Shown here: piece after piece, positions 1 to 52,132 of the stretch | Numbering within the stretch: position 1 is the stretch's first letter | Layout: each line of letters opens with the position of its first letter | NCBI GenBank assembly: GCA_017481235.1 | Contig: JAFUPL010000006.1 | Span: 2,591-66,590 of the forward strand | DNA length: 64,000 nt | Source of the DNA: Clostridia bacterium | GTDB lineage: Bacteria; Bacillota; Clostridia; Christensenellales; UBA1242 | Direction of reading: 5' to 3' | The notes under the pieces: model-generated | What the model was told of the DNA's origin: nothing | The model's database searches: none | Seen by the model: only the letters and a program-made list of their open reading frames with translations | Position numbers and translations under genes: made by a program

Positions 1-995
1 TAACCTTCATAAATGCTTCTGCCTGTAATGGTTTCAAGGTTGCTATTTGGTTTTACAGTTTTTACAACTCTTTTAACTGCGCCATTTGTTCCAGCACAAT
101 CAAGTTCTAATTTTGCTGTATATCCATTTTTATTATCAACTTCTAAAAGTTTGATATATGGTTTGTTAAAATCGTCAACAAGATTATTATTTACAACGCA
201 GATTTGCTTAACAATGTGCATATTATAAGCATCAACAGGCGTTAATCTATAAACTGTATTTATTTTTTGTCTGTGGGTAGCAGAATATCTTAACTCAAAC
301 AAAGGATTTAAACTTGTTATTGCTTCTCTTGCTTTTACTGTATTATCAACACTTTGTGGCTCATCAATGATTATAATAGGACGACATTCTCTTAAAAACT
401 CTTTTGCTGATTTTGCCATAGTATCACTTACTTGGTTAAATAAGTTTTCGTTCTTTTTGAAAGCGTCAATATTTACAATCATAACTTCTAAATTGTTTGA
501 TAATGCAAAATCTCTAACTTCGTGTCTTTTAGCAGAATTATAGATAAACGGTTTTACTGTTGTCCCTTCGTATTCTTGCTTAAAATAATCACGAGTGGTT
601 TGCATAGATTTATAAACACCTTCACGAATAGCAACGCTTGGAACAACTATCACAAATTTGTTAAATCCATATTGTTTATGTAGTTCTAAAATGGTTTTAG
701 TATAAACAAATGTTTTTCCCGTTCCTGTTTCCATTTCAATATTAAATCTTAACTCTTGCAAATCGGTTAAAGGCAATAGGTTTCTATCTTGAACAACTTT
801 TAAATTTTCTTGTATTTGCTCCATAGATAAATCTAAATTATTTGCATATCCCAATAATTCATCGTGAGAAATATCCACAAGGTCCATTTTTTGCACTGAA
901 AAAGTTGACGGTGCACTTGCACAGCCTCTAAACAAATCCACAACGCTCATTACTGCATTGTCTTGAAATTCTTGCTTTTTAAATTTTAATTTCAT
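1..995 (-). CDS. res: Type III restriction endonuclease Res subunit, N-terminal ~331 aa (gene continues past left edge)
   Basis: Absent from ORF track because there is no stop in the window. Manual translation from ATG at 993-995 gives MKLKFKKQEFQDNAV... Helicase motif I is EMETGTGKT and motif II is IIIDEPQ. AAGGA SD lies upstream. Confidence 0.85.
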   Translation of the reverse strand, partial: MKLKFKKQEFQDNAVMSVVDLFRGCASAPSTFSVQKMDLVDISHDELLGYANNLDLSMEQIQENLKVVQDRNLLPLTDLQELRFNIEMETGTGKTFVYTKTILELHKQYGFNKFVIVVPSVAIREGVYKSMQTTRDYFKQEYEGTTVKPFIYNSAKRHEVRDFALSNNLEVMIVNIDAFKKNENLFNQVSDTMAKSAKEFLRECRPIIIIDEPQSVDNTVKAREAITSLNPLFELRYSATHRQKINTVYRLTPVDAYNMHIVKQICVVNNNLVDDFNKPYIKLLEVDNKNGYTAKLELDCAGTNGAVKRVVKTVKPNSNLETITGRSIYEG

Positions 996-1006
996 TTTCT
1001 TTTTCC

Positions 1007-1348
1007 TTAATAACTTAAAAATTCAATTTGAATTCTTTTATTACATCTATTCCATTCTTCTATTAATTCATTTTTATGAGATAAAGTCCACTTGTTTACT
1101 TCTTCCAAAGTTTTACGGTTTAACTTATTATTTCTATCTACAATTTCCCAATTATCTATGTAAATCTCACCAATTTTATGATTGTTTAAGGTTATATGAG
1201 CATGTGGTCTGCTATGTTTTGCATTATCTTCATTATAAACATAAATGCTTAAAACACTATTAAATCTTTGAACCCTGTCTCTTTGCTCAATAACCCTAAA
1301 TCCATATAGATTTGAAAGTTTATGTAATAAATTAAAACTAACAAACAT
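1007..1348 (-). CDS. DUF4160 family small protein
   Basis: 113 aa. The core YVYNEDNAKHSRPHAHI is typical of DUF4160. Its start overlaps the mod stop (TAATG). Confidence 0.7.
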   Translation of the reverse strand: MFVSFNLLHKLSNLYGFRVIEQRDRVQRFNSVLSIYVYNEDNAKHSRPHAHITLNNHKIGEIYIDNWEIVDRNNKLNRKTLEEVNKWTLSHKNELIEEWNRCNKRIQIEFLSY

Positions 1349-3276
1349 TAGAATAACCTCATTTCTTTGTTTTTAGCTTTTAATATTTCTTGTGCATTAA
1401 TTAAAAGGTTATCATCAGAGAAACATCTGTCTGCAAATAGGTAAGTGCCAACACTTTCATTTGCAAATTCTTCTATATCTTCAAGTTTTAAATTCATTTG
1501 TGAACAAATTAAAAGTTTGTATTCTTCGCCATTTACTATATAAGCTTTTTCATTTGCTGTTTTAGTAATAGGTAATGTTAAGTCAATGCCATATTTAAGC
1601 ATTATTTCATAAACTAAATCTAATTCAGTTCTATCATTTTCAAGATAATCTAAACTAATTTGTATTCTTTTTGCAACCTCATCTGCATCTTTTGTTGGAG
1701 TGTTGTTCCATTTTTTAAGGTTAGAAGAATCAAGTTTGAAAACTTTAAAACCGATATCTAAATTATCTAAATATTGCTCATTAGGAGCTTCAACTTTAAT
1801 TGCAAATTTATCATCAAAATCGCCATTATCCAATACTTTTCTTTGCATTAATTTATTCTTATCAATATTAATTTTAATATTTCTGTTATTTTTAATTTGT
1901 TCGCCTGCTCTACGAATTCTCTCCTTGCCTATTTCACATAAAGTTGTAAATCCCAATTTTCTAGCTTCTGATGTTTCTTCTGTCATTTCTGGCAACTGAA
2001 CACAAATAAACTTTCTATGGGTTCCTTTTTTTGCATTAAGGTCAATAACTGAATGTGCAGTTGTTGCTGAGCCTGAAAAGAAGTCCAAAATAATAGAATC
2101 ATCTTGAGAACCAATTTCTGCAAGTCTTCCTATCAAAGCACTTGGCTTTGGATATGAGAACACATCACGGCTACCAAAAAATTCTCTCATTTCAATAGAA
2201 CCTGCTTTAGTTGTTCCGTGTTCCTGACCAATTATATTTGATGGTTTTTGTCCTTGCAACTCATCTTTCAAGAAAGATTTAATATATGGAACCTTTCTTT
2301 TCCCAACAAAAACTTTGCCAATTTTAATCCATTCATCAATACTTTTTTGTGGTGCATACGAAGGCCATTCTATTACAGAGCCATCTTTCAATGGAATATT
2401 TACAGTATAATCTTTTTGTTTGCTTAAATTAACAAGTTGAAACAACTCTCCCTTATTTATTTCTTCAATTATTCCTGATACTAAATTTTCTTCTGGTAAT
2501 TCTTTTATATGTCTTGAAGTGTCTTTTTCATCTAAATTGATAATGTTAGATGCAGAAAAGTTTTTACAATAACAAAGAATATTATCATAATGGCTTCTTA
2601 AGATAGAAGAATCGTTGCCACCTTCTTTTCCTTTTTCCCATACAAATTTAGTAATAAAATTATTTTCACCAAAAATCTCATCACAAATCTTCTTTAAATT
2701 ATACACTTCATGGTCATCTATAGAAATAAATATAACACCATTTTCTGTAAGCAAATTTCTTGCCAACTTCAATCTTGGATACATCATATTTAGCCAATTA
2801 GTGTGATAACGACCATCAGTGTCAGCGTTTGACTTTTGTGCCTGTCCTGTAACTTCCTTATAATTAGCAATATTGTCTTCAAAGTTGTCTTTGTAAACAA
2901 AGTCGTGTCCTGTGTTATAAGGTGGATCTATGTAAATCATTTTAATCCTACCATTATAAGAAGATTGCAAAAGTTTAAGGACTTCTAAATTATCTCCTTC
3001 AATGTAGATATTTTTAGTTGTATCCCAATTTTTACTTTCTTCTATGCAAGGACGAAGTGTGCCTGTTGAACGCTTTTGAGCAAGTTTTGTTGCTTCGGTT
3101 TTTCCATTCCAAACAAAAGAATATTGTTCTTTATTGTTGTTAATATCTTCGCCAAGAATTAATTGCAATTCCTCAAAGTCAATTTTATCTTCTTTAACAA
3201 TGGTAGGAAACAACTCTTTAAGTTTTTCAATGTTTTCTTTAACTAAATCTTTAGTCATTCCATCTAATTTTTCCAT
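1348..3276 (-). CDS. mod: Type III R-M DNA methyltransferase Mod (N6-adenine/N4-cytosine, beta class)
   Basis: 642 aa. Catalytic IYIDPPYNTG lies N-terminal to the AdoMet motif LDFFSGSATT. AAGGAG SD is 7 nt upstream. Confidence 0.9.
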   Translation of the reverse strand: MEKLDGMTKDLVKENIEKLKELFPTIVKEDKIDFEELQLILGEDINNNKEQYSFVWNGKTEATKLAQKRSTGTLRPCIEESKNWDTTKNIYIEGDNLEVLKLLQSSYNGRIKMIYIDPPYNTGHDFVYKDNFEDNIANYKEVTGQAQKSNADTDGRYHTNWLNMMYPRLKLARNLLTENGVIFISIDDHEVYNLKKICDEIFGENNFITKFVWEKGKEGGNDSSILRSHYDNILCYCKNFSASNIINLDEKDTSRHIKELPEENLVSGIIEEINKGELFQLVNLSKQKDYTVNIPLKDGSVIEWPSYAPQKSIDEWIKIGKVFVGKRKVPYIKSFLKDELQGQKPSNIIGQEHGTTKAGSIEMREFFGSRDVFSYPKPSALIGRLAEIGSQDDSIILDFFSGSATTAHSVIDLNAKKGTHRKFICVQLPEMTEETSEARKLGFTTLCEIGKERIRRAGEQIKNNRNIKINIDKNKLMQRKVLDNGDFDDKFAIKVEAPNEQYLDNLDIGFKVFKLDSSNLKKWNNTPTKDADEVAKRIQISLDYLENDRTELDLVYEIMLKYGIDLTLPITKTANEKAYIVNGEEYKLLICSQMNLKLEDIEEFANESVGTYLFADRCFSDDNLLINAQEILKAKNKEMRLF

Positions 3277-3287
3277 TTAATAACTCC

Positions 3288-3974
3288 TTATTTTAAATCG
3301 TCTGACATTTTTGTTCTTGTTAGATTTATAATTTCTTTATCTTTCGGTTTCTTTTTTTCTTCCACATTTATACCTAAAATCAAGTATATAATACATTCTC
3401 TTACTATTTTCATTAAATCAAATGTGTATTTAAAAAGTTCATACTGTGAAATAAAAATTTCATTTTCGTTAATTTTTATATTGTCAGTATTAATAGTTGT
3501 AACGACAAGCCTATGTTCTAAATAATTTCTTAATTTTGCATAATTTTTAGATTTGTATTTTGTTGTTTGATATTTGTCTTCAAATATATCTTTTGAGCTC
3601 CAATATAATCCATTTATCATTAAATTGTTTTTTGCAACTTCTTTTATGACTTTGTTTTCCATAACTTTTCTAAAAGAAACATCTGTCAAATCCAAATTGA
3701 GATTAAAGTATTGATTTACAAAATATGCTATTCTATCTAAAATTGAATAAAAATCTTTAAAACAACATCTTGTAAGATTTTCATAATAATTGCAACTCAT
3801 TAAATTATTTGTTAATTCATATAATTCCACATCTTTATCGGCAATATGATTTTTTCGTTCTATATAATTCAATGACTCAAAAAGTCTATATCTTGCCGAA
3901 ACATATTCTTGTTTTATCTGATTCATTATAGCACAATCAAATTCATCTCGTGTATTATCAATATTATATAACAT
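3288..3974 (-). CDS. HEPN-domain portion (LA2681/Abi-like) of an interrupted gene
   Basis: 228-aa ORF with an Rx4H motif (KLRNYLEHR). No SD precedes its ATG. The 92 codons upstream are open in the same frame. Confidence 0.6.
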   Translation of the reverse strand: MLYNIDNTRDEFDCAIMNQIKQEYVSARYRLFESLNYIERKNHIADKDVELYELTNNLMSCNYYENLTRCCFKDFYSILDRIAYFVNQYFNLNLDLTDVSFRKVMENKVIKEVAKNNLMINGLYWSSKDIFEDKYQTTKYKSKNYAKLRNYLEHRLVVTTINTDNIKINENEIFISQYELFKYTFDLMKIVRECIIYLILGINVEEKKKPKDKEIINLTRTKMSDDLK

Positions 3975-4250
3975 AGATGGTAAGTGTAGGAAATCGTAAG
4001 CAACAAATGAGTCTTTATATATATCATTTAAGACATTAAGATATAAGCCATTTTCTGCAAGCCATTTTCTATAAATTTTTTCGGTTTTAGATTTTCCCCA
4101 ATTATATTTTTTAAACTTGTTTTTTGAGTTTAGATATTCAATTCTAACGATTTGCTCTATTCTTTTTAATTCATTTTCAAAAACCTCATCTGCTCCATGT
4201 AACTTTAAATAATCTTTACTTTTTAACGCATCTTTTATCTGCTTATATCC

Positions 4251-4724
4251 TTACTTGAATAGTAATCCTTTATGGACTTCATCGTATTGAACAGGTGCAA
4301 AATGAGATAATGTAACACCCAAATTGCCTTGCGACATAGGGAAATATTTAATCTTGTTATACATTTCTATCGCTTTAATAGTTCTTCCACAACTTCTACA
4401 AGCATTTGCATAGTTAGTCAATAATTGCTCATATAGTGCTTTGGGTGGTTCATTTCCCATATTGTCAAAAGCATAGTCAAAATAATAAAGTGCTTTTTCT
4501 AAATATTTTTCAAAATCAAATTTAGGATTGTCTTTATTAAGTGTTATTACATCTTCAAATGAAGTTCCAATAGAATAAGCAAGTTGTGCTTTTTTAATTA
4601 ATTCAATGTCTTCATTTAAAAAATTTTTAATTGAGTTAATATGAGAAAGAATTGCAGTTGCATCTTTTTTTTCAAATAATTCATCTGACTTTTTTAAAAT
4701 TGCATCTAAATCAAACTTTTTCAT
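4251..4724 (-). CDS. N-terminal helical-repeat (TPR-like) portion of the interrupted HEPN gene
   Basis: 157-aa ORF. A GAGG SD sits inside the SNF2 3' end, with a 2-nt gap to the SNF2 stop. It ends at TAA 4251-4253. Confidence 0.55.
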   Translation of the reverse strand: MKKFDLDAILKKSDELFEKKDATAILSHINSIKNFLNEDIELIKKAQLAYSIGTSFEDVITLNKDNPKFDFEKYLEKALYYFDYAFDNMGNEPPKALYEQLLTNYANACRSCGRTIKAIEMYNKIKYFPMSQGNLGVTLSHFAPVQYDEVHKGLLFK

Positions 4725-4726
4725 CT

Positions 4727-7336
4727 TTACCTCACTTCAAAGTATATCATAAAACTGTCGGATTTTGTATTGGTTAAAGCAGATTTGTTATAAATTTCAT
4801 CAATTTTTTGTTTTGTTTCACGATTTATCTTTGACTTTTTAATAAATTCGTTGTCTTTTAGCTCAAAAAGTTGTTCTGAAAGCTCATTTATTTTCTGATT
4901 TTTTGCAAGTCCTTCACCAAAGGAATCTGTTGCTGATATGCTTTTCACTCGTTCTATTTCTCTTTGTAAATCTTTTATTTCTTTTTCAAGTTTTGATTTT
5001 TCTTTTTCTGCTAACATTTGTATGTGTGAAATAGGAAGTTTTGCATCTTTGTCTAATTCCAATATTAAAGGTTCTGTTATAATAGGTATTAAGCTTTCAA
5101 AATGATTGGTTAATGTTTCTTTAACTTTTTCTTCTATAAAATAATCTTCTTCAAAATCCATACACTTTAATGATAAAATTTCATCGCAAGTTGAATGGTT
5201 TAAATATTCATTATTATCAGTTAATCCAACACAATAAAGTTGACTAAAATGGTCAAATCCACTGGATAAGTTCAGTTTGAATGCCGAAATATATCCTTTT
5301 AATCCTTTTAGTTTTTCATTATCACTTTTTAAAATAAGTTTGTGTGGTTTTAATTTGTAGGAATATTCAAAATCTGAAATCATTTTTTGACAAGGTTCAG
5401 AGCCAATAGTAAATGGTTTGTAATTTTCATCATTTATAAGCGAGTATTTAAAAGGATAAGCATAAGGATTTTTATCGTGCCAAGCAGTTTTAAATTCAAA
5501 AGTGTTTTCATCTATAAACTTGTCTTTATAAAAATATCTTGCCAATTCTTTGATAGTGCCATCAAGTTCTGCAACTTTTCTTTTAATAATTTCAGCCATA
5601 TTTTTAGTTTTTTCAACCAGTTTTTTATCAAAAGTGTTAAAAAGAATATCATTTGACTGTGCTTTAATACTTTCTAATTCTTCTTTAAATTCTTCAGAAA
5701 GTTCAGTAAAATCTATTTGCACTTCTTTTTTCTTTCTAACATTTTCTAATGTATCTTTAATGTTGGTTTCAATGTCGCCATCAATAGCACCTGAAATAAT
5801 AGTATCACTTGCTCCAATAATGTTGTTAGAAATATTAAGTCGTTTATAAAACAATTCATACATTCTAACATCTGAAAAGTTTTCAGGACAAATAAAGTTA
5901 ATCACAAAAACATCGGTTGCTTGCCCAATTCTATGACAACGAGATATACGCTGTTCCATATCAAGTAACACTTGTGGGAAATCATAGTTAATAACAAAAG
6001 AAGATATTTGCCAGTTTAAGCTTTCATTGCCTTTATCTGTTGAAATTAAAATACTTGTTTTTTCACTTCTAACAAACTTGTTTATAGGTTCATTGTCGGT
6101 TGTTCCATTAAAAGAATTTACCGAATAATCTGTATGTTGCATTAAAAGTTTATGGATATGTTCTTGTGATTGAGTGTTACCAGTAAATATAACACATTTT
6201 TTAGCAATACCTTTTTTATGAAAAGACGAAAAAGTTTGTTGTAATGCTTTTATTAACATTTCATCTTTTTGATTAATTGTTATTGAAGATGCTAAATCTA
6301 ACATCTCTTTAATTTCTTTTGCTTCTTTTAAGTTTTCTTCGGTTGCTTGTCTATTTAATCTTACATATATTCCACTTAAAGTTTTAGAAAGTGCATAAGC
6401 AGAAGACGACAAAGTTCCATAAAACATTAAAGATAGTTCATAGGGGTTCATTTCAGGGAATGCTTGTTTTGTAGATTTAGCAACATATTTTTCAATTAAA
6501 GAGTATAACTGCTTTTCTTTTTCGGTCATTTTATAAATTTGAGTTAAAATTTGTCTTTCAGGTAGTTTTGTTTCAACTTTAACTTGACTTCTTAGTGTTC
6601 TAAAAGTATATGGAGCAATAATATCTCTTAACTCTGGGTAGTTTTCAGGTTTTCTAAAATATCTCTTATGAAATTCCTCGTAATCTGTAAAAATATTGTC
6701 ATCTATAAAGTTGATAAGCCCAAAAATATCATCTTCATTCTTTTGAATTGGTGTAGCAGTAAGCAAGATTTTCTTTGCATTCGGTATTATAGACAATACA
6801 GTGTCGGCAGTTTTATTTTCTTTAATTTTGTAAGTTCTAAATCTATGTGCTTCATCTAAAATACATAGTTGCCAATCTTTTTCTTTAAGTTTATCGGCAT
6901 TACTTATAACAGAATCATAAGTCGTTAAAACAATCCCGCTATCAAAACGAGAAAAATCAGTTGTGTAATTATCTGATATAGGCCTTTCAACATTATCTAA
7001 AACACAGCATCTAAAATCAAAAGTTCTAACAATACTTTGTAGCCAATTATCAATAGTTGGCGAAGGAACAATAACCAAACAATTACTTTTCCTTTTTCTA
7101 TATTGAGCTAAAATTAAAAGTGCTTCCATTGTTTTTCCAAGCCCAGCTTCGTCTGCTAAAATAAAACCTTTAACAAATGGGTTTGAAATAGCAAAGGTTG
7201 ACGCATAAATTTGATGTGAAAAAATATCTATACCACTTCTTAAATATTGTGATATTAAGTTTTCCATTTTTCCTATGCGTAAATCCTCGTTAATCTTATT
7301 TACGAGATAGTAAGCTTGAATCCTGTTATTTATCAT
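4727..7336 (-). CDS. SNF2/RAD54-family helicase with ~350-aa uncharacterised C-terminal extension
   Basis: Motif I ADEAGLGKT, motif II LDEAHRF, motif VI QRISRCHRIGQ. Start is placed at M79 of the track ORF (ATG 7334-7336), downstream of the promoter. M102 (7267) is an alternative start. Confidence 0.85.
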   Translation of the reverse strand: MINNRIQAYYLVNKINEDLRIGKMENLISQYLRSGIDIFSHQIYASTFAISNPFVKGFILADEAGLGKTMEALLILAQYRKRKSNCLVIVPSPTIDNWLQSIVRTFDFRCCVLDNVERPISDNYTTDFSRFDSGIVLTTYDSVISNADKLKEKDWQLCILDEAHRFRTYKIKENKTADTVLSIIPNAKKILLTATPIQKNEDDIFGLINFIDDNIFTDYEEFHKRYFRKPENYPELRDIIAPYTFRTLRSQVKVETKLPERQILTQIYKMTEKEKQLYSLIEKYVAKSTKQAFPEMNPYELSLMFYGTLSSSAYALSKTLSGIYVRLNRQATEENLKEAKEIKEMLDLASSITINQKDEMLIKALQQTFSSFHKKGIAKKCVIFTGNTQSQEHIHKLLMQHTDYSVNSFNGTTDNEPINKFVRSEKTSILISTDKGNESLNWQISSFVINYDFPQVLLDMEQRISRCHRIGQATDVFVINFICPENFSDVRMYELFYKRLNISNNIIGASDTIISGAIDGDIETNIKDTLENVRKKKEVQIDFTELSEEFKEELESIKAQSNDILFNTFDKKLVEKTKNMAEIIKRKVAELDGTIKELARYFYKDKFIDENTFEFKTAWHDKNPYAYPFKYSLINDENYKPFTIGSEPCQKMISDFEYSYKLKPHKLILKSDNEKLKGLKGYISAFKLNLSSGFDHFSQLYCVGLTDNNEYLNHSTCDEILSLKCMDFEEDYFIEEKVKETLTNHFESLIPIITEPLILELDKDAKLPISHIQMLAEKEKSKLEKEIKDLQREIERVKSISATDSFGEGLAKNQKINELSEQLFELKDNEFIKKSKINRETKQKIDEIYNKSALTNTKSDSFMIYFEVR

Positions 7337-7366
7337 TTGAAAACCTTTTGTAAAAAATATATCAGT

Positions 7367-7375
7367 ATTATAACA
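7367..7375 (-). promoter_or_regulatory. Extended -10 promoter candidate (TGTTATAAT) for the SNF2-HEPN-mod-res cassette
   Basis: The reverse complement of 7367-7375 reads TGTTATAAT, about 30 nt upstream of ATG 7336. Confidence 0.4.
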
Positions 7376-7438
7376 TATAATTCTAATATTTGTTGTGTTT
7401 TGCGTAAATTTTAATAATAATTTTATCAATTTGAGATC

Positions 7439-7498
7439 GTGGCGTGTGCTTGTCTTGAACAAGTGCCTCGCTTCGCTCGGCAGACAAGCACACGCCAC
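7439..7498. repeat. Perfect 17-bp GC-rich inverted repeat with 26-nt loop
   Basis: GTGGCGTGTGCTTGTCT (7439-7455) pairs with AGACAAGCACACGCCAC (7482-7498). It stands out against AT-rich surroundings. Confidence 0.9.
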
Positions 7499-7529
7499 TA
7501 AACAATTAAAAGTGAAATTAAAGCAAAGG

Positions 7530-7596
7530 AATCGGCAACAAAATTGGGTTTGCACGCAGGCTTTCTGCAAAACCCAATTTTTTTATGTTGCCGATT
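7530..7596 (-). terminator. Long nested hairpin immediately after the Rep stop
   Basis: AATCGGCAACA/TGTTGCCGATT and AAATTGGGTTTGCA/TGCAAAACCCAATTT arms with flanking T-runs. It starts 3 nt past the Rep stop. Confidence 0.6.
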
Positions 7597-7598
7597 GA

Positions 7599-8630
7599 CT
7601 AATTGCACTTTCTCATTTGAGCAATTACTTTTGGACTAACTTTACCCATAAGGCAACCTTCGTCCCAGCAAGTAAAATCATCAAATAGCAATAGTTTTTT
7701 ATCTTCTTGACCTATGGTGCAGACAATATCTTCGTCCATAATGTCTGATATGAAGTATTGATATAGCCCTTTGCTATAAACAATCTTTTCTTCTGTTTTT
7801 TCCAAATACTTAACAATGTAAGATATTTCTTTATATAAATCTTCTTTGCTTACTATTTTTTCAAAATCTGACCGACCAAATCTTTCATTGAAATAGCTGT
7901 TTTGTATTGTTTTTGTTCTTCTATGAGAATTAATGTTGTAGTCGCTATGTTCAAACAATTCACCAACCATTGCTTTATCTGGTATTTCAAATAATCCGTG
8001 AAAGTGAAGGCGTTTTGTTTCAGGTGCACGCTCCCAAACACCCATATATTTCCAATCGTTTCTATAACACAAATTACGAAAACAAGTTTTAAGTTTCTTT
8101 TTAAAAGATTCTTCTGTATGTTTCTTGTCATCATAAGTAAAAGTGCAAAAATAATTGAAGTTAACTAAATTTGCTTTTCTAACCATTCGGACTCTGCGAC
8201 AAATTAAGTTTCGCAGTTTTCTATCAAAATTTGTATTTACAAAACTTACACATAATTCCTTGTTTTCAAAATATGGGAGCATATCTTGAATAATAAGCTT
8301 TTTGCGTTCTTTTTTCTTGTAATCAATATATTTGATATATAACTCATTAAACAATTCTTTTTTAGTCATTTGACGAGCTGTTTTAGGTTTCGTTTCTTGC
8401 TTTTTAGTTTCTTCTTCAATTATTTCAGTATTTTCAATTTCTTCAATATTTTCTTCGTTATCAAGTGAAATAGAGGGCTCTACATTTTCAGCAGAGTCCT
8501 TTACTTCATCTTGAATAACAGTTATAGTTTCTTCCAATTTATATGGACGCTTTTTTGATGGTCTTGTAGTATGGGGAATAGCAATGTAATGACTTCCATC
8601 AAAATAAACTTTTGTTTCTCCAAACGGCAT
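7599..8630 (-). CDS. Rolling-circle replication initiator (HUH endonuclease, two-Tyr type)
   Basis: 343 aa. HUH motif is RLHFHGLF and the YxxKY motif is SYIVKYLEK, as in phiX gpA-type Reps. Confidence 0.75.
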   Translation of the reverse strand: MPFGETKVYFDGSHYIAIPHTTRPSKKRPYKLEETITVIQDEVKDSAENVEPSISLDNEENIEEIENTEIIEEETKKQETKPKTARQMTKKELFNELYIKYIDYKKKERKKLIIQDMLPYFENKELCVSFVNTNFDRKLRNLICRRVRMVRKANLVNFNYFCTFTYDDKKHTEESFKKKLKTCFRNLCYRNDWKYMGVWERAPETKRLHFHGLFEIPDKAMVGELFEHSDYNINSHRRTKTIQNSYFNERFGRSDFEKIVSKEDLYKEISYIVKYLEKTEEKIVYSKGLYQYFISDIMDEDIVCTIGQEDKKLLLFDDFTCWDEGCLMGKVSPKVIAQMRKCN

Positions 8631-8666
8631 ATTTGCTCCTTCATATATGCACGCTGACTTTTGGAT

Positions 8667-9005
8667 TTAACTGTTATTATTGTTAGAGTCAGCGCTTGTT
8701 TTTTCGCTAACTTTCTTTTTAAATAACTTGCTAAATATACCTTTCTTTCTTGGGTTGCCTAATTTTAATAATCTTTTTTGCTCTTTATTTTTAGCTTTAA
8801 CTTTCTTTCTAAATTGTCTTTGATATTTTCTATCTTCTTTGTCTATTCTTTTAAATGCTTTCTTCATATTTTTGAATATATACTTGCTAATCTTCTTATT
8901 AAACTTTTCTGGAACAAAATCGTTAGTGTCTAATGTGTGAGAAAAGGTATCATAATATTTGTCTAATGTCTGATTAATAAGAACATTTTTATTAAAATTT
9001 ATCAT
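8667..9005 (-). CDS. Small lysine-rich basic protein (phage module)
   Basis: Start moved to ATG 9003-9005, which has an AAAGGAG SD. It overlaps the Zot-like gene end by 14 nt. Confidence 0.5.
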   Translation of the reverse strand: MINFNKNVLINQTLDKYYDTFSHTLDTNDFVPEKFNKKISKYIFKNMKKAFKRIDKEDRKYQRQFRKKVKAKNKEQKRLLKLGNPRKKGIFSKLFKKKVSEKTSADSNNNNS

Positions 9006-21454: not shown

Positions 21455-21599
21455 CGATAATAATTAAAATTAGATTACTACCATATTAAGCGATATTATA
21501 GCATTATTAATAATAATTTTGATGCTAAAAATATAATAATATGAGTATTTTATTTGCTAATTTTATTGCTTTATGATATTATTAGGTAAGGAGATTTTT

Positions 21600-22727
21600 A
21601 TGTTTGCTAATAAGAAGATTATGATGATTGCCACAACCGATAATATGATATGGCAATTTCTATTGCCACATATCAAATATTTGCAAGAGAAAGGCAATAT
21701 TGTTGAATGTGTGTGTGCAAAAACTGGGTTTTGGTTTGATGAATTAAGGGATAAATATGGTCTTAAGGTGCATGAGATTGATTTTGGGAGAAACCCATTA
21801 AAGTTTAAGAACTTTGGTGCATATAAAAAGTTGAAATTGCTACAAAAGGAAAACAAATTTGACTTAATATACTGTCAACAACCGGTTGGTGGAATGATGG
21901 GAAGACTGTTGGGTAAAAAGTTTAAACTTCCTGTAATATACACCGCGCACGGTTTTCATTTCTTTAATGGTGCACCGCTTGTTAATAGATTGGTGTATAA
22001 ACCAGTAGAAAAATGGCTTTCGAAGTATACTGATATTTTGATTACTATCAATGAAGAGGATTATCAAAATGCATTAAAGATGAAGGCTAAAAATGTGTTT
22101 AAGATAAACGGTATTGGAATGGAATTTAAAAAGTATGATATAATTGAGGAAACAAGGCAAGAAATTAGGAAAAGTTTAGGTATTAAGGATGAAGAGTTTG
22201 TTATTGTTACGGTTGCAGAGTTTATTAAGCGCAAAAACTATAAAACAATGATAAATGTAATCAAGGGTCTAAAGGATAAAGGCGTTAAGGTTAAATTTTT
22301 GGTTTGCGGTCGTGGACAGGATGAGGAAAAAATTAAGCAACAAATTATAGACCTTGATATTAAAGAGCAAGTTAATATTTTGGGATATCGTAAGGATATT
22401 AACCGCATTTTAACTGGGGCAGATGTGTTTATGTTGACATCCTTCCAAGAAGGTTTGACATTATCAGTTATTGAAGCTATGAGTTACGGTTTGCCTTGCG
22501 CTGTTAGTAATGTTAGAGGGAATAGAGATTTAATCGTTGATGGTCAAGGTGGAATTGTGGTTGATGCTACAAATGTTGATGGGTTTGTAGATAGGATTAA
22601 GGAATTATCAAACAATGTACAACTTCGTGCAAAAATGGGCGAGTTTAATAAAGAGGAAAGTAAGAAATACACAATTGAAACAGTATTAAATCAATTGGCA
22701 GAAATCTATGGAGTAATTAAATGGTAA
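21600..22727 (+). CDS. Glycosyltransferase family 4 (GT-B)
   Basis: C-terminal EGLTLSVIEAMSYGLP motif. Start at ATG 21600 after a GGAG SD. Confidence 0.8.
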   Translation: MFANKKIMMIATTDNMIWQFLLPHIKYLQEKGNIVECVCAKTGFWFDELRDKYGLKVHEIDFGRNPLKFKNFGAYKKLKLLQKENKFDLIYCQQPVGGMMGRLLGKKFKLPVIYTAHGFHFFNGAPLVNRLVYKPVEKWLSKYTDILITINEEDYQNALKMKAKNVFKINGIGMEFKKYDIIEETRQEIRKSLGIKDEEFVIVTVAEFIKRKNYKTMINVIKGLKDKGVKVKFLVCGRGQDEEKIKQQIIDLDIKEQVNILGYRKDINRILTGADVFMLTSFQEGLTLSVIEAMSYGLPCAVSNVRGNRDLIVDGQGGIVVDATNVDGFVDRIKELSNNVQLRAKMGEFNKEESKKYTIETVLNQLAEIYGVIKW

Positions 22728-23188
22728 AAGAAAACAAATATCTATGGCTAAGATGTTTTATTGCATTTGCCTTGCAGTTCTTAGCGTTTGTGTATAAACC
22801 GTTTGTTATTATCGAATTAGTATATTTAATTTTATTAATAATTTTGGACAAACCTGAAAACAAAATATGTTATTTATTTTTTATGTTGCCATTTTATAAT
22901 GTGTTTAGATATAGCGCTGGCGCATTTAGATTTAATAATATTTTTGATAGTTTAAAAACCTTATATTTAAGCACCATACTAGTTTTGGTATTTTGCTTGG
23001 TGATGGGTGTACATTTTGTTTTGGATATTAAAAACAAGAAAAAAAGCATTAACTTAAAGTCTATTATAGTTCTTGCAATACTATATATATTGTTTTTAGT
23101 TCCATTTAATAGTATTGATAGCCAAGCGTTTAGTTCGATACTAGTTATTTCTTCATTATTTTTGGCAACTTACTTAATCTATCAATAA
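22721..23188 (+). CDS. N-terminal transmembrane part of a Wzy/O-antigen-ligase-like protein
   Basis: 155 aa, multi-TM. It is in the same frame as the next ORF and separated from it by one TAA. Confidence 0.55.
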   Translation: MVKENKYLWLRCFIAFALQFLAFVYKPFVIIELVYLILLIILDKPENKICYLFFMLPFYNVFRYSAGAFRFNNIFDSLKTLYLSTILVLVFCLVMGVHFVLDIKNKKKSINLKSIIVLAILYILFLVPFNSIDSQAFSSILVISSLFLATYLIYQ

Positions 23189-23242
23189 AAAGAGTGTTTT
23201 AATTTAAGAAAAATACTAGATATATGGCTTATAGGTGTTGTA

Positions 23243-25063
23243 TTGTCGGTGGTTACATATCTATTTAAGGATATATTACCTTATTTAGGTGACTACATTG
23301 TGCAGTTTGAACAAAGGTTTTCAGGTTTGCAACGCGACCCTAATTATTTTGGATTTGAATTAATGGTATTGCTAGTGGGATATACGGTGTTATTTTTTAA
23401 ACATCAACTCAAATATAAGACGTTGATTCCGTTTGGTATAATATCAATAATTGCAATTTTTACACTATCTAAAAGTTTCTTGATTTCGTATGTGTTGTAT
23501 TTGGTCGTGCTTTTGGTGTGTTTATTAAGATATATACTAAAACAAATTAAAGACAAAAAGAAAAAAGTAACATTTATTTGCTTGATTGTCACTGGTGTTG
23601 TAATATGTAGCATTGTTGCGATTATTGTATTACCTAAACTATTTGAAGGTAGAGCAAATGTTGTTGACACCAAATCAGGCGGAGTATACAACTTTATAAA
23701 TAGTTTAACTACTGGCAGATTAGGTATATGGATTGATTATATCAAACTGTATTTTAAATCATTTTGGAGAGTGGTATTTGGTTATGGTTCTCTAAATGGT
23801 TACCCAATGGACGCAGTACATAATACACCATTACAAATTTTATTTTTTGGTGGAATTATTGCATTAGGGATATTAATTTATCTATTGATTAAATTTATTA
23901 AAAATCATAAATGTCCAGCGATAATGTATATCTTAATAGGAATATTGCTAATACATTCTTGTTCGGTGGACTTATTATTTTCATATAGAACATACTTAAT
24001 TTTATCAATTATGATTTTGTGTTTTAATTTGTACCCAAAAGAAGAATTTATCAATATAAATACTTTACAAAAATTTAATACAACAAAATTAAGTGTTGTG
24101 ATACCTATATATAATGCAGAAAAATATATTGAAAGATGCGTAGAGAGTTTAACTAAACATAAAGATTTGAATTTGGAAATTATTTTAGTTAATGATGGTA
24201 GTACGGATAATAGTGGACATATCTGCAAACAACTTGCGTTGTTAGATGATAGAGTTAATGTAATAGAAAAATCAAATGGTGGTGTTTCAAGTGCTAGAAA
24301 CGAAGGCTTAAAATATGCTACGGGTGAATACGTAACATTTATTGATGCTGATGATTTTGTAAGTGATGAGTTTAAGGCTTGCTATTCAGTATTGGGTGAA
24401 AGTGAAATATATTGTGTTCCTTATTGTGAAATCAAGGGCGACAATAAAAGATTAATAATCCCCACAACAGATTGGAACGGTAAAGTTGCAACTAATCTAA
24501 ATAATGGTGCAGTTACTACAGGATTATATAATTCTGTCTGTATGAAAATCTTTAAAACAAGTATAATAAAAGAAAATAATATTGAGTTTGATACAAGTTT
24601 GAAAATTGCTGAAGATTTTAAATTTGTTATAGATTGTTTTAAGGTTTCTAACACTATTGATTTTGTTGGCTGTTGCTATTACAATTATTTTAGAAATGAT
24701 ACTTCAGCAATGCATAAGGTAGACTTTGAAAAAATATGTAACACATTAGATGCTTGCAAATATGCAATTAACACAGTTAAAAATATAAAAAGTGTAAACA
24801 TTAAGAAGTTGTGTTTGAAGTTAGTAAGTGAAAATTTATTGTCTGTATTTGCTAGAGTTAATGATTATTCTAGCGATAAAAACAAGTATTTAATGGAAGA
24901 ATTATGCAAATTAAAACAATACTTTAGTTATGGTTCTTCGCTTATAAAGAAGATTTTAGTAATATTAATAAAGATTTTTGGTATTAAAATTTTCATAAAA
25001 ACATTAAAAAAAGTTAAATCAATTAAAAGGAGCAAAAATGAAAATATTTCTAAAATGGATTAA
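23243..25063 (+). CDS. Wzy/O-antigen-ligase-like membrane domain fused to a GT2 glycosyltransferase
   Basis: The track start is TTG. RFSGLQRDPNYFGFE and TLSKSF are Wzy_C-like. The C-terminal half has LSVVIPIYNAEKYIERC...NDGSTD...DADD (GT2). Confidence 0.7.
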   Translation: MSVVTYLFKDILPYLGDYIVQFEQRFSGLQRDPNYFGFELMVLLVGYTVLFFKHQLKYKTLIPFGIISIIAIFTLSKSFLISYVLYLVVLLVCLLRYILKQIKDKKKKVTFICLIVTGVVICSIVAIIVLPKLFEGRANVVDTKSGGVYNFINSLTTGRLGIWIDYIKLYFKSFWRVVFGYGSLNGYPMDAVHNTPLQILFFGGIIALGILIYLLIKFIKNHKCPAIMYILIGILLIHSCSVDLLFSYRTYLILSIMILCFNLYPKEEFININTLQKFNTTKLSVVIPIYNAEKYIERCVESLTKHKDLNLEIILVNDGSTDNSGHICKQLALLDDRVNVIEKSNGGVSSARNEGLKYATGEYVTFIDADDFVSDEFKACYSVLGESEIYCVPYCEIKGDNKRLIIPTTDWNGKVATNLNNGAVTTGLYNSVCMKIFKTSIIKENNIEFDTSLKIAEDFKFVIDCFKVSNTIDFVGCCYYNYFRNDTSAMHKVDFEKICNTLDACKYAINTVKNIKSVNIKKLCLKLVSENLLSVFARVNDYSSDKNKYLMEELCKLKQYFSYGSSLIKKILVILIKIFGIKIFIKTLKKVKSIKRSKNENISKMD

Positions 25064-25943
25064 GGAATTTGGTTTTTTATTTACAATTAAATATTACACT
25101 TGCACAATTTTAGAAAAACTCTCAAGAGGAAAGTTAAGTCTAAAAAACAATATAATTAAAAAATATATCAAAAAACATTATAAAGATATGATTGTTGACA
25201 ATGTTGTTTCGCAAGAGTATAATATTTATGAAGGTAAAATATGGGTATTTTGGTGGACCGGAATAGAAACCGCTCCAGATATAGTTAAGCGTTGCATTGA
25301 AAAAATAAAAAAATCATCAAACGATAAAGTTGTTATTTTGGACAAGAATAATATAAAAAATTATATAGAAATTCCTCCACATATTTATGATAAAATTGAA
25401 AAAGGATATATAACAATCACACATTTTAGCGATATATTGAGGATGTGTTTATTATCACAATATGGTGGTCTGTGGTTGGATTCAACTATATATTATACAG
25501 GTGGTAATATTAAAGAATATTTGGAAAGAGAATTTTATACAATAAAACATTTAAACGGAAACTCAAGATATGTGTCTAAGAATAGATGGACGGGATATTT
25601 TTTATCTTGTAAGAAAAACAATTTATTAGTTGTCAATGTACGCAATATTTTGTTTGAATATTGGAAAAAACACGACACACTTATTGAATATTTTTTAATA
25701 GATTTTTTAATAGATTTAGTATATTCAAACAACTATACTGTTAAATGCATGATTGATAATCTTGAACCCAACAACGAAAATAACGAAAAATTGGTAGCGT
25801 TATTAAATGAACCATATAAAGAAGAGATATTAAAAAAACTAATAAACAACACAAATGTGTTTAAATTGACGTGGAAACAAGAATTTAAACTTGAGAATGA
25901 AGGAAAGAAAACTTTTTATAATTATATAATTAATGGTGGTTAG
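25038..25943 (+). CDS. Capsular polysaccharide synthesis protein (Caps_synth/OCH1-like glycosyltransferase)
   Basis: WVFWWTG...HFSDILRMCLLSQYGGLWLDST motif. Confidence 0.7.
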   Translation: MKIFLKWIKEFGFLFTIKYYTCTILEKLSRGKLSLKNNIIKKYIKKHYKDMIVDNVVSQEYNIYEGKIWVFWWTGIETAPDIVKRCIEKIKKSSNDKVVILDKNNIKNYIEIPPHIYDKIEKGYITITHFSDILRMCLLSQYGGLWLDSTIYYTGGNIKEYLEREFYTIKHLNGNSRYVSKNRWTGYFLSCKKNNLLVVNVRNILFEYWKKHDTLIEYFLIDFLIDLVYSNNYTVKCMIDNLEPNNENNEKLVALLNEPYKEEILKKLINNTNVFKLTWKQEFKLENEGKKTFYNYIINGG

Positions 25944-25945
25944 AT

Positions 25946-27097
25946 ATGAAAAAATTAGACGTCATCCTTGTTAATAGAAACATGGTTGCCGGAGGAATTG
26001 AAACGGCAATTTTAGGGTTTATGCAAAACTTAAAAGAATATGTAAATTTTGATTTGCTATTATTTAATAAATGTGGTACTTTATTAAGCAGAGTCCCCAA
26101 AGAGACTAGAGTTTTAGAGACTGGAAGAATTTTGAGATTGCTAGGTAATACTTACGCGGGGAATATACAGCAAAAATCAACTACGGTAAGTTATGATATT
26201 AAGAAAAAAATTCTAAAATTTGCAAAAAAATTAGGTGCCGAGAAAGCGCTAGGTAAGTTTGCTTTTGTTGGGCAAAAACAAAATAAAAAATATGATATTG
26301 GCATTTGTTGTCATGGGATAGATTACTTAAAGTGCAAGTATGTTTTAAAATGTGTTGATGCGAGATACAAGATCGCGTTTATTCATTGCGATGTTCGAGA
26401 ATATAAAGTAAGCAAAAAGACGTTGAAAATGCTTTTAAAATTTGACAAAATTCTTTGTGTGTCAAAAAGTTGTGCTAATATATTCCTTGAAAAGTATCCT
26501 CAATTTACTAATGTTGACTACTTGTATAATTTTCAAGATATTGATAGGATAAAAAAACTTGCAGATGCATTTGAAGTGGAGTATAAGCATGGTTTAAACT
26601 TAGTAACGGCTGCCCGTTTAACCGAACAAAAAGGTCATATTAGAGCGTTGAGAGTTTTAAAAAGACTTCACGATGAAGGGTATTCATTTATTTGGAATAT
26701 TGTGGGTAATGGCGAGAAAGAGGAAGAGATTTTTGAATTTATCAAACAAAATCAAATGGAAGATTATGCTATAATGCATGGATTGCAATCTAATCCATAT
26801 CCTTTTATAAAAAAAGCAGATTTATTCTTTTTGGCCACACTCCACGAGGCCGCACCAATGGTTTATTGCGAGGCCATGAGTTTAAGGGTCCCAGTATTTA
26901 CAACAAATACTTGCTCTGCTGATGAACTGGTTGGCGATTTGGGTTTTGTTTGCGATAATAGCGAAGAGGAAATTTATTTAAAATTAAAAGAAATTTTTGA
27001 TAATCCTGCATTATTAACATTGTCAAAAGAAAAAATAAAAGATTACCACTATGGAAACGAAGAGATTGTGAAAAAGTTTTTAGATATGTTTAAATAA
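25946..27097 (+). CDS. Glycosyltransferase family 4 (GT-B)
   Basis: 383 aa. LHEAAPMVYCEAMSLRVP is an E-x7-E-like region. Confidence 0.75.
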   Translation: MKKLDVILVNRNMVAGGIETAILGFMQNLKEYVNFDLLLFNKCGTLLSRVPKETRVLETGRILRLLGNTYAGNIQQKSTTVSYDIKKKILKFAKKLGAEKALGKFAFVGQKQNKKYDIGICCHGIDYLKCKYVLKCVDARYKIAFIHCDVREYKVSKKTLKMLLKFDKILCVSKSCANIFLEKYPQFTNVDYLYNFQDIDRIKKLADAFEVEYKHGLNLVTAARLTEQKGHIRALRVLKRLHDEGYSFIWNIVGNGEKEEEIFEFIKQNQMEDYAIMHGLQSNPYPFIKKADLFFLATLHEAAPMVYCEAMSLRVPVFTTNTCSADELVGDLGFVCDNSEEEIYLKLKEIFDNPALLTLSKEKIKDYHYGNEEIVKKFLDMFK

Positions 27098-27120
27098 AAT
27101 TTAGTGTTTGGGAGAAATGT

Positions 27121-28152
27121 ATGGAAGGAAATTTAATTTCAGTTATTGTACCAGTATACAAGGTTGAAAAATATTTGAATAGATGTGTTGAAAGTATTAT
27201 AAATCAAACCTATAAAAACTTGGAAATAATATTAGTTAACGATGGAAGTCCAGACAACTGCCCTAAAATATGTGAGGATTGGGCAAGCAAAGATTTGCGT
27301 ATTAAAGTTGTGTGCAAAGAAAACGGAGGGATTAGTTCGGCTCGGAATTTTGGCCTTAGATACGCAACTGGAGAATATATAGCATTTATTGATAGTGACG
27401 ATTATGTTGATGTAACAATGTTTGAAAAATTGATGAAGTCTGCAATTGAAAACAAAAGCGATGTTGTTATCTGTGGATTTAAAAACGTATATGAAGACGG
27501 GGGATGTGAGGATGTTATTGAAAAGAATTTGCCACAAGTAACTAACGAAAATATATTATATTACTACATTATATCCAACACTAAAAAAGTTAATAAGCAA
27601 ATAACTACAGATACAATATCTCCGAGTGTTTGGCGAATGTTATATTCAAAAGAGGTTATTAAGGATATTTATTTTGAAGAAGATGTAAGATATGGTGAAG
27701 ATTTGTTATTTAATGTCGAAGTATTTAGCAAATCTATAAAAATATCTACAGTTATGGAATGTTTGTATTTTTATTTTCAACGAAAAGGTAGCGCAGTTCG
27801 TTTGATAAACGAAAACATGCTTAAAACTAAGTTTAACTACGCTATAAAAAAATTAAAATTGGCAGATCTTATTAAAGACGAAAGTGCTGCTAACGCATTT
27901 AAGTTTTCGATTTATAAAATGATTTACTGGGATCTGGTTAAATACAAAAATATTTCCGCTTATAAAAAATACTATCCTAGACTACTGGAATTAAACCTTA
28001 ACCTTAAGCAGTATTATAAAGATTTTCAAGATATGTCTTTAAATAAACAAGAACGACTAATAAATTATTTAATGCATAAAAATAAGATTCACATTATGAG
28101 ATTTTGTTTTGATGTTAAACAAAACATAAAACAATTGTTTAAAAGAGGATAG
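27121..28152 (+). CDS. Glycosyltransferase family 2
   Basis: ISVIVPVYKVEKYLNRCVESI...VNDGSPD...DSDD. Confidence 0.85.
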   Translation: MEGNLISVIVPVYKVEKYLNRCVESIINQTYKNLEIILVNDGSPDNCPKICEDWASKDLRIKVVCKENGGISSARNFGLRYATGEYIAFIDSDDYVDVTMFEKLMKSAIENKSDVVICGFKNVYEDGGCEDVIEKNLPQVTNENILYYYIISNTKKVNKQITTDTISPSVWRMLYSKEVIKDIYFEEDVRYGEDLLFNVEVFSKSIKISTVMECLYFYFQRKGSAVRLINENMLKTKFNYAIKKLKLADLIKDESAANAFKFSIYKMIYWDLVKYKNISAYKKYYPRLLELNLNLKQYYKDFQDMSLNKQERLINYLMHKNKIHIMRFCFDVKQNIKQLFKRG

Positions 28153-28156
28153 TCCA

Positions 28157-29725: not shown

Positions 29726-29760
29726 CGATATAATTTGGTGAAATTATAATATAAAAAATA

Positions 29761-29791
29761 CACCCAAGATTTATTTCTTGGGTGATTTTTT
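29761..29791. terminator. Bidirectional terminator between wzx and licD
   Basis: CACCCAAGA/TCTTGGGTG stem with A/T runs on both sides. The right arm lies inside the last licD codons. Confidence 0.65.
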
Positions 29792-52057: not shown

Positions 52058-52132
52058 TGGTGCGTTTATCAGGATTTGAACCCGAACTAATGGTTCCGAA
52101 GACCATTGTGCTATCCATTACACCATAAACGC
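52058..52132 (-). tRNA. tRNA-Arg (anticodon UCG), CCA encoded
   Basis: Manual cloverleaf. Acceptor GCGTTTA/TAAACGC, anticodon arm ATGGT-CTTCGGA-ACCAT, T arm TCGGG-TTCAAAT-CCTGA, ending ACCA. Confidence 0.9.

Follow-up and report, generated by a model that had tools for sequence, protein, structure and literature searches.

A five-gene cassette centred on a restriction-modification (R-M) system of type III lies at the start of the window, a 64,000-nucleotide (nt) stretch of a contig from a Clostridia bacterium (JAFUPL010000006.1). The map of open reading frames (ORFs) and direct reading of the window placed all five ORFs on the minus strand, encoding an SNF2-family ATPase, a TPR-HEPN protein, a methyltransferase (Mod), a DUF4160 protein and a restriction subunit (Res) (Table 1). 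The SNF2 and HEPN genes are 2 nt apart, HEPN and mod 11 nt, mod and the DUF4160 gene overlap in the sequence TAATG, and 11 nt separate the DUF4160 gene from res. The strand and each of these junctions had been given in a first-pass annotation made from the letters alone, and every value was reproduced. The extended -10 promoter candidate that the same annotation had placed ahead of the cassette is present as TGTTATAAT. It is a consensus match, and promoter-like matches were not enriched over shuffled sequence; DNA homology with three related loci (L001, L005 and L015) starts close to it, at 7364-7415. A pattern scan of positions 1-8700 gave no convincing internal terminator, in line with the earlier claim. 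It returned three weak matches, two of them within cassette coding sequence, against 2.3 expected by chance. Simple-sequence repeats were not found in mod or in the rest of the cassette, and a phase-variable mod was rejected on this ground.

Table 1. Features of the cassette, contents of its two variable slots across loci, and surrounding features of the window.
Feature	Position	Strand	Remarks
SNF2	7336..4727	minus	869 amino acids (aa), ATG start
SNF2 3' end TATACTTTGAAGTGAGGTAA	4727..4746	minus	built-in Shine-Dalgarno GAGG and stop codon; left border of slot A
TPR-HEPN	4724..3288	minus	478 codons, in-frame TAA at 4253..4251 (codon 158)
In-frame TAA	4251..4253	minus	HEPN codon 158; GAA (E158) in intact copies
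Mod	3276..1348	minus	642 aa
Mod variable target-recognition region (TRD)	~2090-2650	minus	similarity gap 2632-2087 against L101, L099, L005 and L014
Mod 3' end AAAGAAATGAGGTTATTCTAA	1348..1368	minus	built-in Shine-Dalgarno; stop overlapped by the ATG of the following gene (TAATG); slot B's left border
DUF4160	1348..1007	minus	113 aa
Res	995..<1	minus	N-terminal 331 aa in window; remainder past left window edge
Extended -10 promoter candidate TGTTATAAT	7375..7367	minus	~30 nt upstream of SNF2 ATG; consensus match only
Slot A contents			HEPN_LA2681, AbiTii (3 loci), AbiD, Fic (2 kinds), DUF4145, SieB, Bro-N, RhuM, HEC-01A/B, coiled-coil protein, several unknowns, or empty (about 9 loci)
Slot B contents			DUF4160 (window, L009, L117), Zn-ribbon, Bro-N, KilA-N, Mrr_cat, GIY-YIG, weak PIN, many unknowns, or empty (4 loci)
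Perfect 17-nt inverted repeat, 26-nt loop	7439-7498		between Rep gene and cassette
Terminator-like hairpin and T-run	7537-7584		ends Rep gene, upstream of TGTTATAAT
REP_ORF2-G2P (rolling-circle/inovirus gpII-like) replication protein (Rep), 343 aa	7599-8630	minus	directly upstream of cassette
BspA-type LRR_5 protein, coiled-coil N-terminus	10701-12062	minus	among unknown genes between Rep and recombinase
Large serine recombinase (Resolvase, Recombinase, Zn_ribbon_recom)	16673-18205	plus	~9 kb upstream of cassette
Glycosyltransferase and O-antigen-ligase-like genes	21573-30000	plus	surface polysaccharide cluster
tRNA gene	52061-52132	minus	sole Rfam match in 64-kb window

The identification of the 869-aa protein preceding mod and res as an SNF2 ATPase was borne out by its Pfam domains (SNF2-rel_dom, 1.9e-42, and Helicase_C) and by its catalytic motifs GLGKT, DEAH and QRxSRxHRxGQ, all of which are intact. 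Its top match in the PADLOC defence library was the DrmD profile PDLC02619 (1.6e-89). Against the NCBIfam equivalog model DISARM_DrmD_b (NF038318) it scored 297 bits, well below the cut-off of 950. Judged by these profiles the protein is DrmD-like, which explains the DISARM flavour of the locus. The motor domain occupies approximately residues 1-510. In an AlphaFold model (predicted local distance difference test, pLDDT, 85; predicted template modelling score, pTM, 0.79), residues 556-578 are a disordered linker, and the C-terminal region is made up of a beta-rich domain (612-730), an antiparallel coiled coil (736-851; ~60 residues) and a terminal strand. Structure matches (Foldseek and a PDB profile search) were to SNF2 motors only, bacterial RapA being the best, and the whole-model fold search left the beta domain and the coiled coil without an assignment of their own. 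The last ~350 residues, which the earlier annotation could not assign, are common to relatives down to 25% identity, can be modelled as above, and partially match the BrxHI profile of PADLOC. No nuclease or other effector domain was found in the protein by Pfam, in the model or by fold search.

Mod contains an N6_N4_Mtase domain (Pfam) and matches the PADLOC profile MTase_III PDLC03634 over its full length (1.1e-185). Its DPPY motif, at residue 117, lies ahead of FSGS, at residue 400, the beta-class arrangement, and with its central variable TRD it is a beta-class amino-methyltransferase of the type III kind. The part of Res within the window matches ResIII (Pfam) and REase_III PDLC03647 (2.3e-103; PADLOC), and carries the motifs TGTGKT and DEPQ of a superfamily 2 (SF2) ATPase. 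It is identical at 329 of 331 residues to the Res protein of L101, which is 970 aa long and has both ResIII and RE_endonuc domains. mod stands before res in one putative operon, co-oriented and with the 113-aa ORF between them, as is the order in type III systems. The nuclease-less SNF2 ATPase gene directly adjoins mod-res in the same orientation, which places the locus among SNF2-associated type III R-M systems.

The conservation of this arrangement was assessed in a GTDB scan at one genome per species, which gave 574 SNF2 relatives; 80 loci were retrieved, and mod and res were sought in them by tblastn with the window Mod and a full-length Res. The SNF2 score was at least 290 bits in 47 loci, and with one exception, L031, those with enough flank all had Mod and Res in the same orientation. 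In L031 (9938-12766) the SNF2 protein scored >300 bits and the flank is ample, but there is no Mod or Res, and an AAA_14/DUF4143 ATPase gene lies upstream. Every metagenome context read, around SNF2 homologues of 88% down to 30% identity, had the form SNF2-(x)-Mod-(y)-Res. Taken together, synteny is kept from 99% to ~25-30% SNF2 identity, in two gene orders. SNF2-Mod-Res was found in Clostridia, Treponema, Desulfovibrionaceae, Gastranaerophilales and Rikenellaceae, the labels of relatives in the GTDB scan including Treponema and Clostridia gut metagenome-assembled genomes (MAGs). The order Mod-Res-SNF2 was found in Alphaproteobacteria MAGs, where the Res/SNF2 gap is 73 nt in one of eight loci and lies between -4 and +3 nt in the other seven. 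In these Alphaproteobacteria loci (L035-L043) the position between mod and res, called slot B below, is still filled, with Mrr_cat, KilA-N or GIY-YIG genes. Over 32 non-redundant loci the bit scores co-varied (Spearman coefficients of 0.61 for SNF2-Res, 0.67 for SNF2-Mod and 0.52 for Res-Mod), indicating that SNF2 tracks the R-M genes as well as Mod and Res track each other. The proposed link between SNF2 and type III mod/res thus recurs across phyla, and this synteny identifies SNF2, Mod and Res as a conserved core unit.

SNF2 relatives were also carried by 83 plasmids. A Salmonella IncFIB plasmid has the arrangement helix-turn-helix (HTH)-SNF2-IS256-AbiD-hypothetical-Mod-Res, an Aeromonas plasmid WYL-SNF2-HEC-01A/B-Mod-insertion sequence (IS)-Res, and a Monoglobus plasmid HTH-SNF2-RhuM-Mod-transposase-Mod-Res. 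Among 5426 complete Escherichia coli genomes, 255 have an SNF2 relative, which adjoins type III mod/res in about 180. The arrangement in 152 genomes is a P4-satellite type (L098), SNF2-Mod(1040 aa)-Res(1126 aa), and in 29 an island type, HTH-SNF2-IS1-AbiD-Mod-Res. In relatives from enterobacteria, Aeromonas and Monoglobus (L097, 11814-12014; L094; L095; L096), a small HTH gene (mads1/MAD1 in PGAP annotation) or a WYL regulator overlaps or precedes SNF2; the window lacks a regulator of either kind. The eight-gene MADS system (mad1-mad8) was considered and rejected, its only trace being the PGAP name mads1 on the HTH gene of the E. coli relatives; neither an HTH gene nor other mad genes were found in the window with Pfam and PADLOC.

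Comparison of DNA between loci gave exact breakpoints, at 4727/3288 and 1346/1008. L001 is homologous to the window at 7386-4723, 3288-1346 and 1008-1, and L101 at 7487-2632, 2087-1347 and 1009-1. L013 matches the window at 97.9% DNA identity from 12960 as far as the SNF2 stop at 4727, beyond which it has an unrelated ORF without a Pfam match; its SNF2 protein is 99% identical to that of the window, yet the gene that follows is different. These breakpoints define three regions that swap: a slot A between SNF2 and mod (4722-3289), the Mod TRD (~2650-2090) and a slot B between mod and res (1345-1009). The SNF2 3' end TATACTTTGAAGTGAGGTAA is identical in seven loci in which SNF2 identity ranges from 49% to 99%, and similarity stops at the stop codon regardless of the next gene. 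In an alignment of eight loci the Mod 3' end, AAAGAAATGAGGTTnTTCTAA, is likewise conserved together with its Shine-Dalgarno. The Mod start keeps an AAGGAG or AAGGA of its own, as does the Res start (junction alignments). Any ORF inserted in a slot would be co-expressed, as it finds a ribosome-binding site in the 3' end of the core gene before it. Insertions are on the same strand, with frame-independent translational coupling, in nearly all cases.

The contents of the slots vary widely (Table 1) and in relatives are for the most part genes of Abi, toxin, nuclease or phage-derived DNA-binding kinds. Both are empty in L020 and L021, and slot A is empty in L007 and L009. Slot proteins fell into many singleton clusters, among which no remote homology was found past close pairs, and PADLOC gave no match for the slot B proteins tested. 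From these comparisons, the HEPN and DUF4160 genes are taken to be exchangeable cargo outside the core. No description of the variable-slot architecture was found in the literature that could be searched; it is the sole part of the locus of which this is true, and it provides a comparative-genomics lead of moderate interest. In two Gastranaerophilales loci, slot A holds two small opposite-strand ORFs (~97 and 93-126 aa) that are conserved between them (L023, 12513-13271; L032, 5719-6436) and may be a toxin-antitoxin pair.

The slot A gene of the window encodes a TPR-HEPN protein with an Rx4H motif, as the first-pass annotation had it: residues 265-455 match HEPN_LA2681 (PF18733, 2.5e-35), and the motif, RNYLEH, is at residue 399. 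The in-frame TAA that had also been noticed was confirmed and located at codon 158, where it truncates the protein within the TPR region. Used as a query, the HEPN protein led to two homologues, an intact twin of 478 aa with E158 (P0121) and a relative at 69% identity (P0122); intact copies have GAA at this codon, which indicates that the TAA arose by a single G-to-T change. The twin was also modelled (pLDDT 91), and its N-terminal ~200 residues form a TPR-like helical repeat, for which the top fold matches were all TPR proteins, with weak E-values of ~0.01. A HEPN fold with Rx4-6H and an N-terminal TPR region is typical of the LA2681 family, to which the broken ORF is assigned. A stand-alone HEPN domain from the internal start M251 (ORF 3974..3288) was rejected; this start has no Shine-Dalgarno upstream, and the internal ORF is therefore regarded as unexpressed. 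Read in this way, the HEPN gene is dead here owing to the nonsense codon, and the other four genes are intact.

The HEPN gene was present in none of the 93 loci assembled after the genome scan. P0121 and P0122 sit in slot A of SNF2-Mod-Res cassettes in L099/L100, L101 and L102/L103, in which the slot B gene differs; L101 shares the HEPN gene of the window and has another slot B gene. HEPN in slot A is thus known from a narrow clade only, of five contigs, all found in the search with the HEPN protein. The suggested pairing of SNF2 with HEPN beside type III R-M does recur, in these cassettes, and does not extend to the 93 other loci. More distant LA2681 proteins (≤37% identity) are stand-alone genes in islands, in agreement with a 2013 survey of HEPN domains, which lists LA2681 with TPR fusions and TPR operons only and without R-M linkage (PMC3710099). 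The intact HEPN twin is present in two independent assemblies, L099 (6190-12237) and L100, where SNF2 is in three pieces and Mod in two or three. An intact HEPN gene with a broken core in these loci, as against a broken HEPN gene with an intact core in the window, hints at antagonism or alternating decay.

The slot B protein of the window matches Pfam DUF4160 (4.2e-09) and scored 44 bits against the NCBIfam model toxin_DhiT, for which the cut-off is 100. No DUF2442 antitoxin ORF was found adjacent to it in the ORF map or with Pfam. Homologues with 55% and 49% identity come immediately after mod in L009 and L117, respectively, L117 being the one locus added by a metagenome scan for DUF4160. The protein could be a toxin-like passenger, although our certainty on this point is low.

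The surroundings of the cassette point to a mobile element (Table 1). The serine recombinase probably marks an integrated element that carries the cassette, and the inverted repeat next to the Rep gene could be an origin or nick site. In the E. coli island L097, an 'inovirus-type Gp2 protein' is encoded a few kilobases upstream of SNF2. Relatives adjoin integrases, MobL/TraG genes, P4 satellites and plasmid replicons, as well as other defence systems (PDC-M33, SduA_C and Mrr/Macro). Only 10 SNF2 relatives were found in viral contigs (IMG/VR), so the cassette is not mainly phage-borne. We conclude that the locus is a mobile defence cassette. Among the neighbouring genes of the window, the BspA-LRR block is common to L013 at 97.9% identity, and one glycosyltransferase of the polysaccharide cluster also matches Pfam 'GT4-conflict'. 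In L007 (4453-7982) and L009 (1350-4901), the PADLOC candidate system PDC-M33 A/B/C (including DUF6339) lies directly upstream of the cassette in the same orientation; the SNF2 proteins of these loci are only 40-49% identical to that of the window, and PDC-M33 with SNF2-Mod-Res may be a recurrent pairing. A YpsA (SLOG-family) gene adjoins the cassette in three otherwise different loci (L005, 7208-7762; L102, 700-1257; L009, 13394-13969).

We consider it probable that the locus is a mobile representative of the SNF2-associated type III R-M systems already known, with two passenger genes in defined slots, one of them dead. By extension from the type III family, Mod2Res1 would recognise a short asymmetric site, at which Mod would methylate one strand of the host DNA. 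Unmodified invader DNA with inversely oriented sites would be cleaved after ATP-dependent sliding by Res. SNF2 may be an accessory double-stranded DNA translocase; this assignment is of low certainty, but the divergence of SNF2 follows that of Mod and Res as closely as these two follow each other, so that it most likely acts with them. Possible tasks in such a role are the clearing or sensing of invader DNA that is modified or protein-bound, and the countering of anti-restriction. The 3' ends of the core genes would give slot ORFs a ribosome-binding site and hence co-expression. The slot A HEPN protein was probably, though again with low certainty, a second-line abortive-infection RNase, by analogy with PrrC in EcoprrI. 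For the window itself the practical outcome is modest: a mobile type III R-M cassette, one of whose passenger genes is dead.

Several points weigh against this interpretation. A single transcription unit is compatible with all of the signals and is suggested by gene spacing and the absence of a terminator. The nuclease half of Res lies outside the window. The TAA in the HEPN gene could in principle be an assembly error. Cooperation of SNF2 with Mod and Res, whether physical or functional, is presumptive. In two published systems compared below, ATPase peptides were absent from partially purified Eco86II (PMC8259958), and transposon hits in EcoR22I fell solely in mod and res (bioRxiv 10.1101/2023.04.06.535777), which fits an independent or conditional role of SNF2. 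The ATPase of the Eco86II kind is moreover likened to the SNF2 family of the window by the description in PMC8259958 only. GIY-YIG, Bro-N and KilA-N genes and IS elements in the slots resemble selfish insertions more than they do cargo for defence, and a back-up effector role may therefore hold for only some slot genes.

The last of these points leads to the alternative that we take most seriously, although we doubt it: that the slots are merely hot spots where selfish genes insert, for instance those of homing-type nucleases, of DNA-binding modules from phages and of toxins, which would play no part in host defence. Besides the GIY-YIG, Bro-N, KilA-N, Mrr_cat and IS insertions, the many slot proteins without a recognisable family would fit this explanation. 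It accounts less well for slot A, which often holds AbiTii, AbiD, HEPN_LA2681, DUF4145, Fic, SieB, RhuM or HEC-01, and for the preservation of strand and translational coupling in nearly all insertions. It is unlikely that SNF2 is an independent single-gene defence or a housekeeping remodeler that merely clusters with R-M genes in defence islands. The strict adjacency and co-orientation across phyla, in two orders and with overlapping stop and start codons, the co-divergence with Mod and Res, the conserved 3' end that doubles as ribosome-binding site for the next gene and the lack of an effector domain in SNF2 itself all speak for a tie to the R-M genes. On the other side, the ATPase is dispensable for cleavage and methylation by Eco86II and for restriction and cell death by EcoR22I, L031 has SNF2 without Mod and Res, and single-gene SNF2 defences such as HmaA do exist.

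The first-pass annotation had suggested that one composite system could couple restriction to abortive infection. An obligate machine of all five genes would be consistent with their tight, translationally coupled spacing, with recurrence of the order SNF2-HEPN-Mod-x-Res in L101 and L102/L103 (HEPN identity 69-100%) and with the position of DUF4160 after mod in three loci. It is nevertheless very unlikely, and the comparative data have already largely refuted it: slot contents are unrelated in most relatives, where not absent as in L020 and L021 (both slots) and in L007 and L009 (slot A), and they swap even between near-identical flanks, as the slot A gene of L013 and the slot B gene of L101 demonstrate. 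In addition, the HEPN gene is a nonsense mutant beside four intact genes, and LA2681 HEPN genes stand alone elsewhere. Still less credible, and in our view highly improbable, is a reduced or variant class 1 DISARM in which DrmD and a DrmMI-like methylase are retained and Res takes the place of DrmABC. The best PADLOC and NCBIfam matches of SNF2 are DrmD models, and class 1 DISARM reportedly pairs DrmD with an adenine methylase. However, the DrmD_b score is far below its cut-off, Mod and Res fit type III profiles end to end, and DrmA, DrmB and DrmC are missing from the window neighbourhood and from the annotated homologous loci.

Within the preferred reading of a type III R-M system with passengers, a broader proposal can be made, tentatively, as possible rather than probable: SNF2-Mod-Res might be a plug-and-play chassis with two coupled slots of invariant borders, in which Abi or toxin effectors, HEPN, AbiTii, AbiD, Fic, SieB and DUF4160 among them, are swapped by recombination and are held in check by the type III complex or fire on its failure. 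If true, type III R-M would have a guard arrangement of the PrrC kind in generalised form, of which the literature that could be searched gave no description. Should the slots hold up as exact exchange points that preserve the ribosome-binding site and are rich in Abi-type genes, they would allow cheap mining of single-gene defence or toxin candidates, for which they are useful because many slot proteins have no known family, and would extend the logic of R-M plus back-up effector from type I (PrrC, Ronin) to type III. The role of SNF2 beside hundreds of type III R-M systems is a question raised by two studies, for which L101 and L102 offer compact, intact examples.

Comparison with known systems places the locus as follows. 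The resemblance to DISARM without DrmA/B/C that had been pointed out was upheld. Class 1 DISARM, like the window, has a DrmD-like SNF2 protein adjoining a beta-class amino-methyltransferase; unlike the window, which has a bona fide type III Res instead, it includes DrmA, DrmB and DrmC. No drmABC genes (DUF1998, PLD) were found in window positions 1-25000 or in the annotated homologous loci, and on this and the sub-threshold DrmD_b score an assignment to DISARM was rejected. DhiTA is a toxin-antitoxin system of a DUF4160 toxin and a DUF2442 antitoxin (PMC8198452). The window has the DUF4160 family in common with it, but its protein is sub-threshold for DhiT, lacks a DUF2442 partner and is encoded between mod and res. 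HEPN/Abi genes embedded in R-M operons have a general precedent (Anantharaman et al., 2013; PMC3710099). EcoprrI-PrrC, in which PrrC is an anticodon nuclease, shares with the window a HEPN RNase gene enclosed by an R-M operon, an arrangement suggestive of a guard or back-up effector kept silent for as long as the R-M complex is intact; EcoprrI differs in being a type Ic system, and PrrC in belonging to another HEPN family, with an ABC-ATPase N-domain, and the HEPN gene of the window is inactivated.

The closest parallels are type III systems that already include a helicase-like ATPase. Murray et al. (2021) described a 'third group' among systems of type III, including Eco86II and BspHIV, with an additional SF2 helicase-like ATPase gene 5' of mod; it co-localises with mod/res in >500 genomes, systems of this kind make N4-methylcytosine (m4C), and the ATPase of Eco86II was not needed for methylation or cleavage (PMC8259958). 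The window resembles Eco86II and BspHIV in having a nuclease-less SF2 ATPase gene directly 5' of mod-res, and differs in its embedded cargo genes, which are not described for them. Among the matches listed from the E. coli genomes, none was from NCTC86, the Eco86II strain. Silas et al. (2023) described EcoR22I, from E. coli ECOR22, with a drmD-like SNF2 helicase; its Mod and Res by themselves conferred restriction of lambda-vir as well as cell death triggered by Ocr (bioRxiv 10.1101/2023.04.06.535777), both of which are properties of Mod and Res themselves. The Res protein of L098 has D1024 and D1043 in a PD...DxK motif, with the same numbering as in the nuclease-dead EcoR22I mutant, which indicates that L098 is of the EcoR22I type. 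The SNF2 protein of the window is 24-25% identical to those of L097 and L098 and homologous to the EcoR22I-type helicase, PDLC02619 being the best PADLOC profile for all three (299 bits for the window, 697 for L097 and 660 for L098). Like the window, EcoR22I has the order drmD-like SNF2-mod-res on a mobile element (in its case at a P4 satellite hot spot); its Mod and Res, of 1040 and 1126 aa respectively, are much longer and fall in other profile families of type III, and it has no slot genes. An SNF2 or helicase-like ATPase with type III R-M has therefore been published twice (PMC8259958; bioRxiv 10.1101/2023.04.06.535777), and the initial description of the locus as an undescribed composite architecture is incorrect for its SNF2 and type III part.

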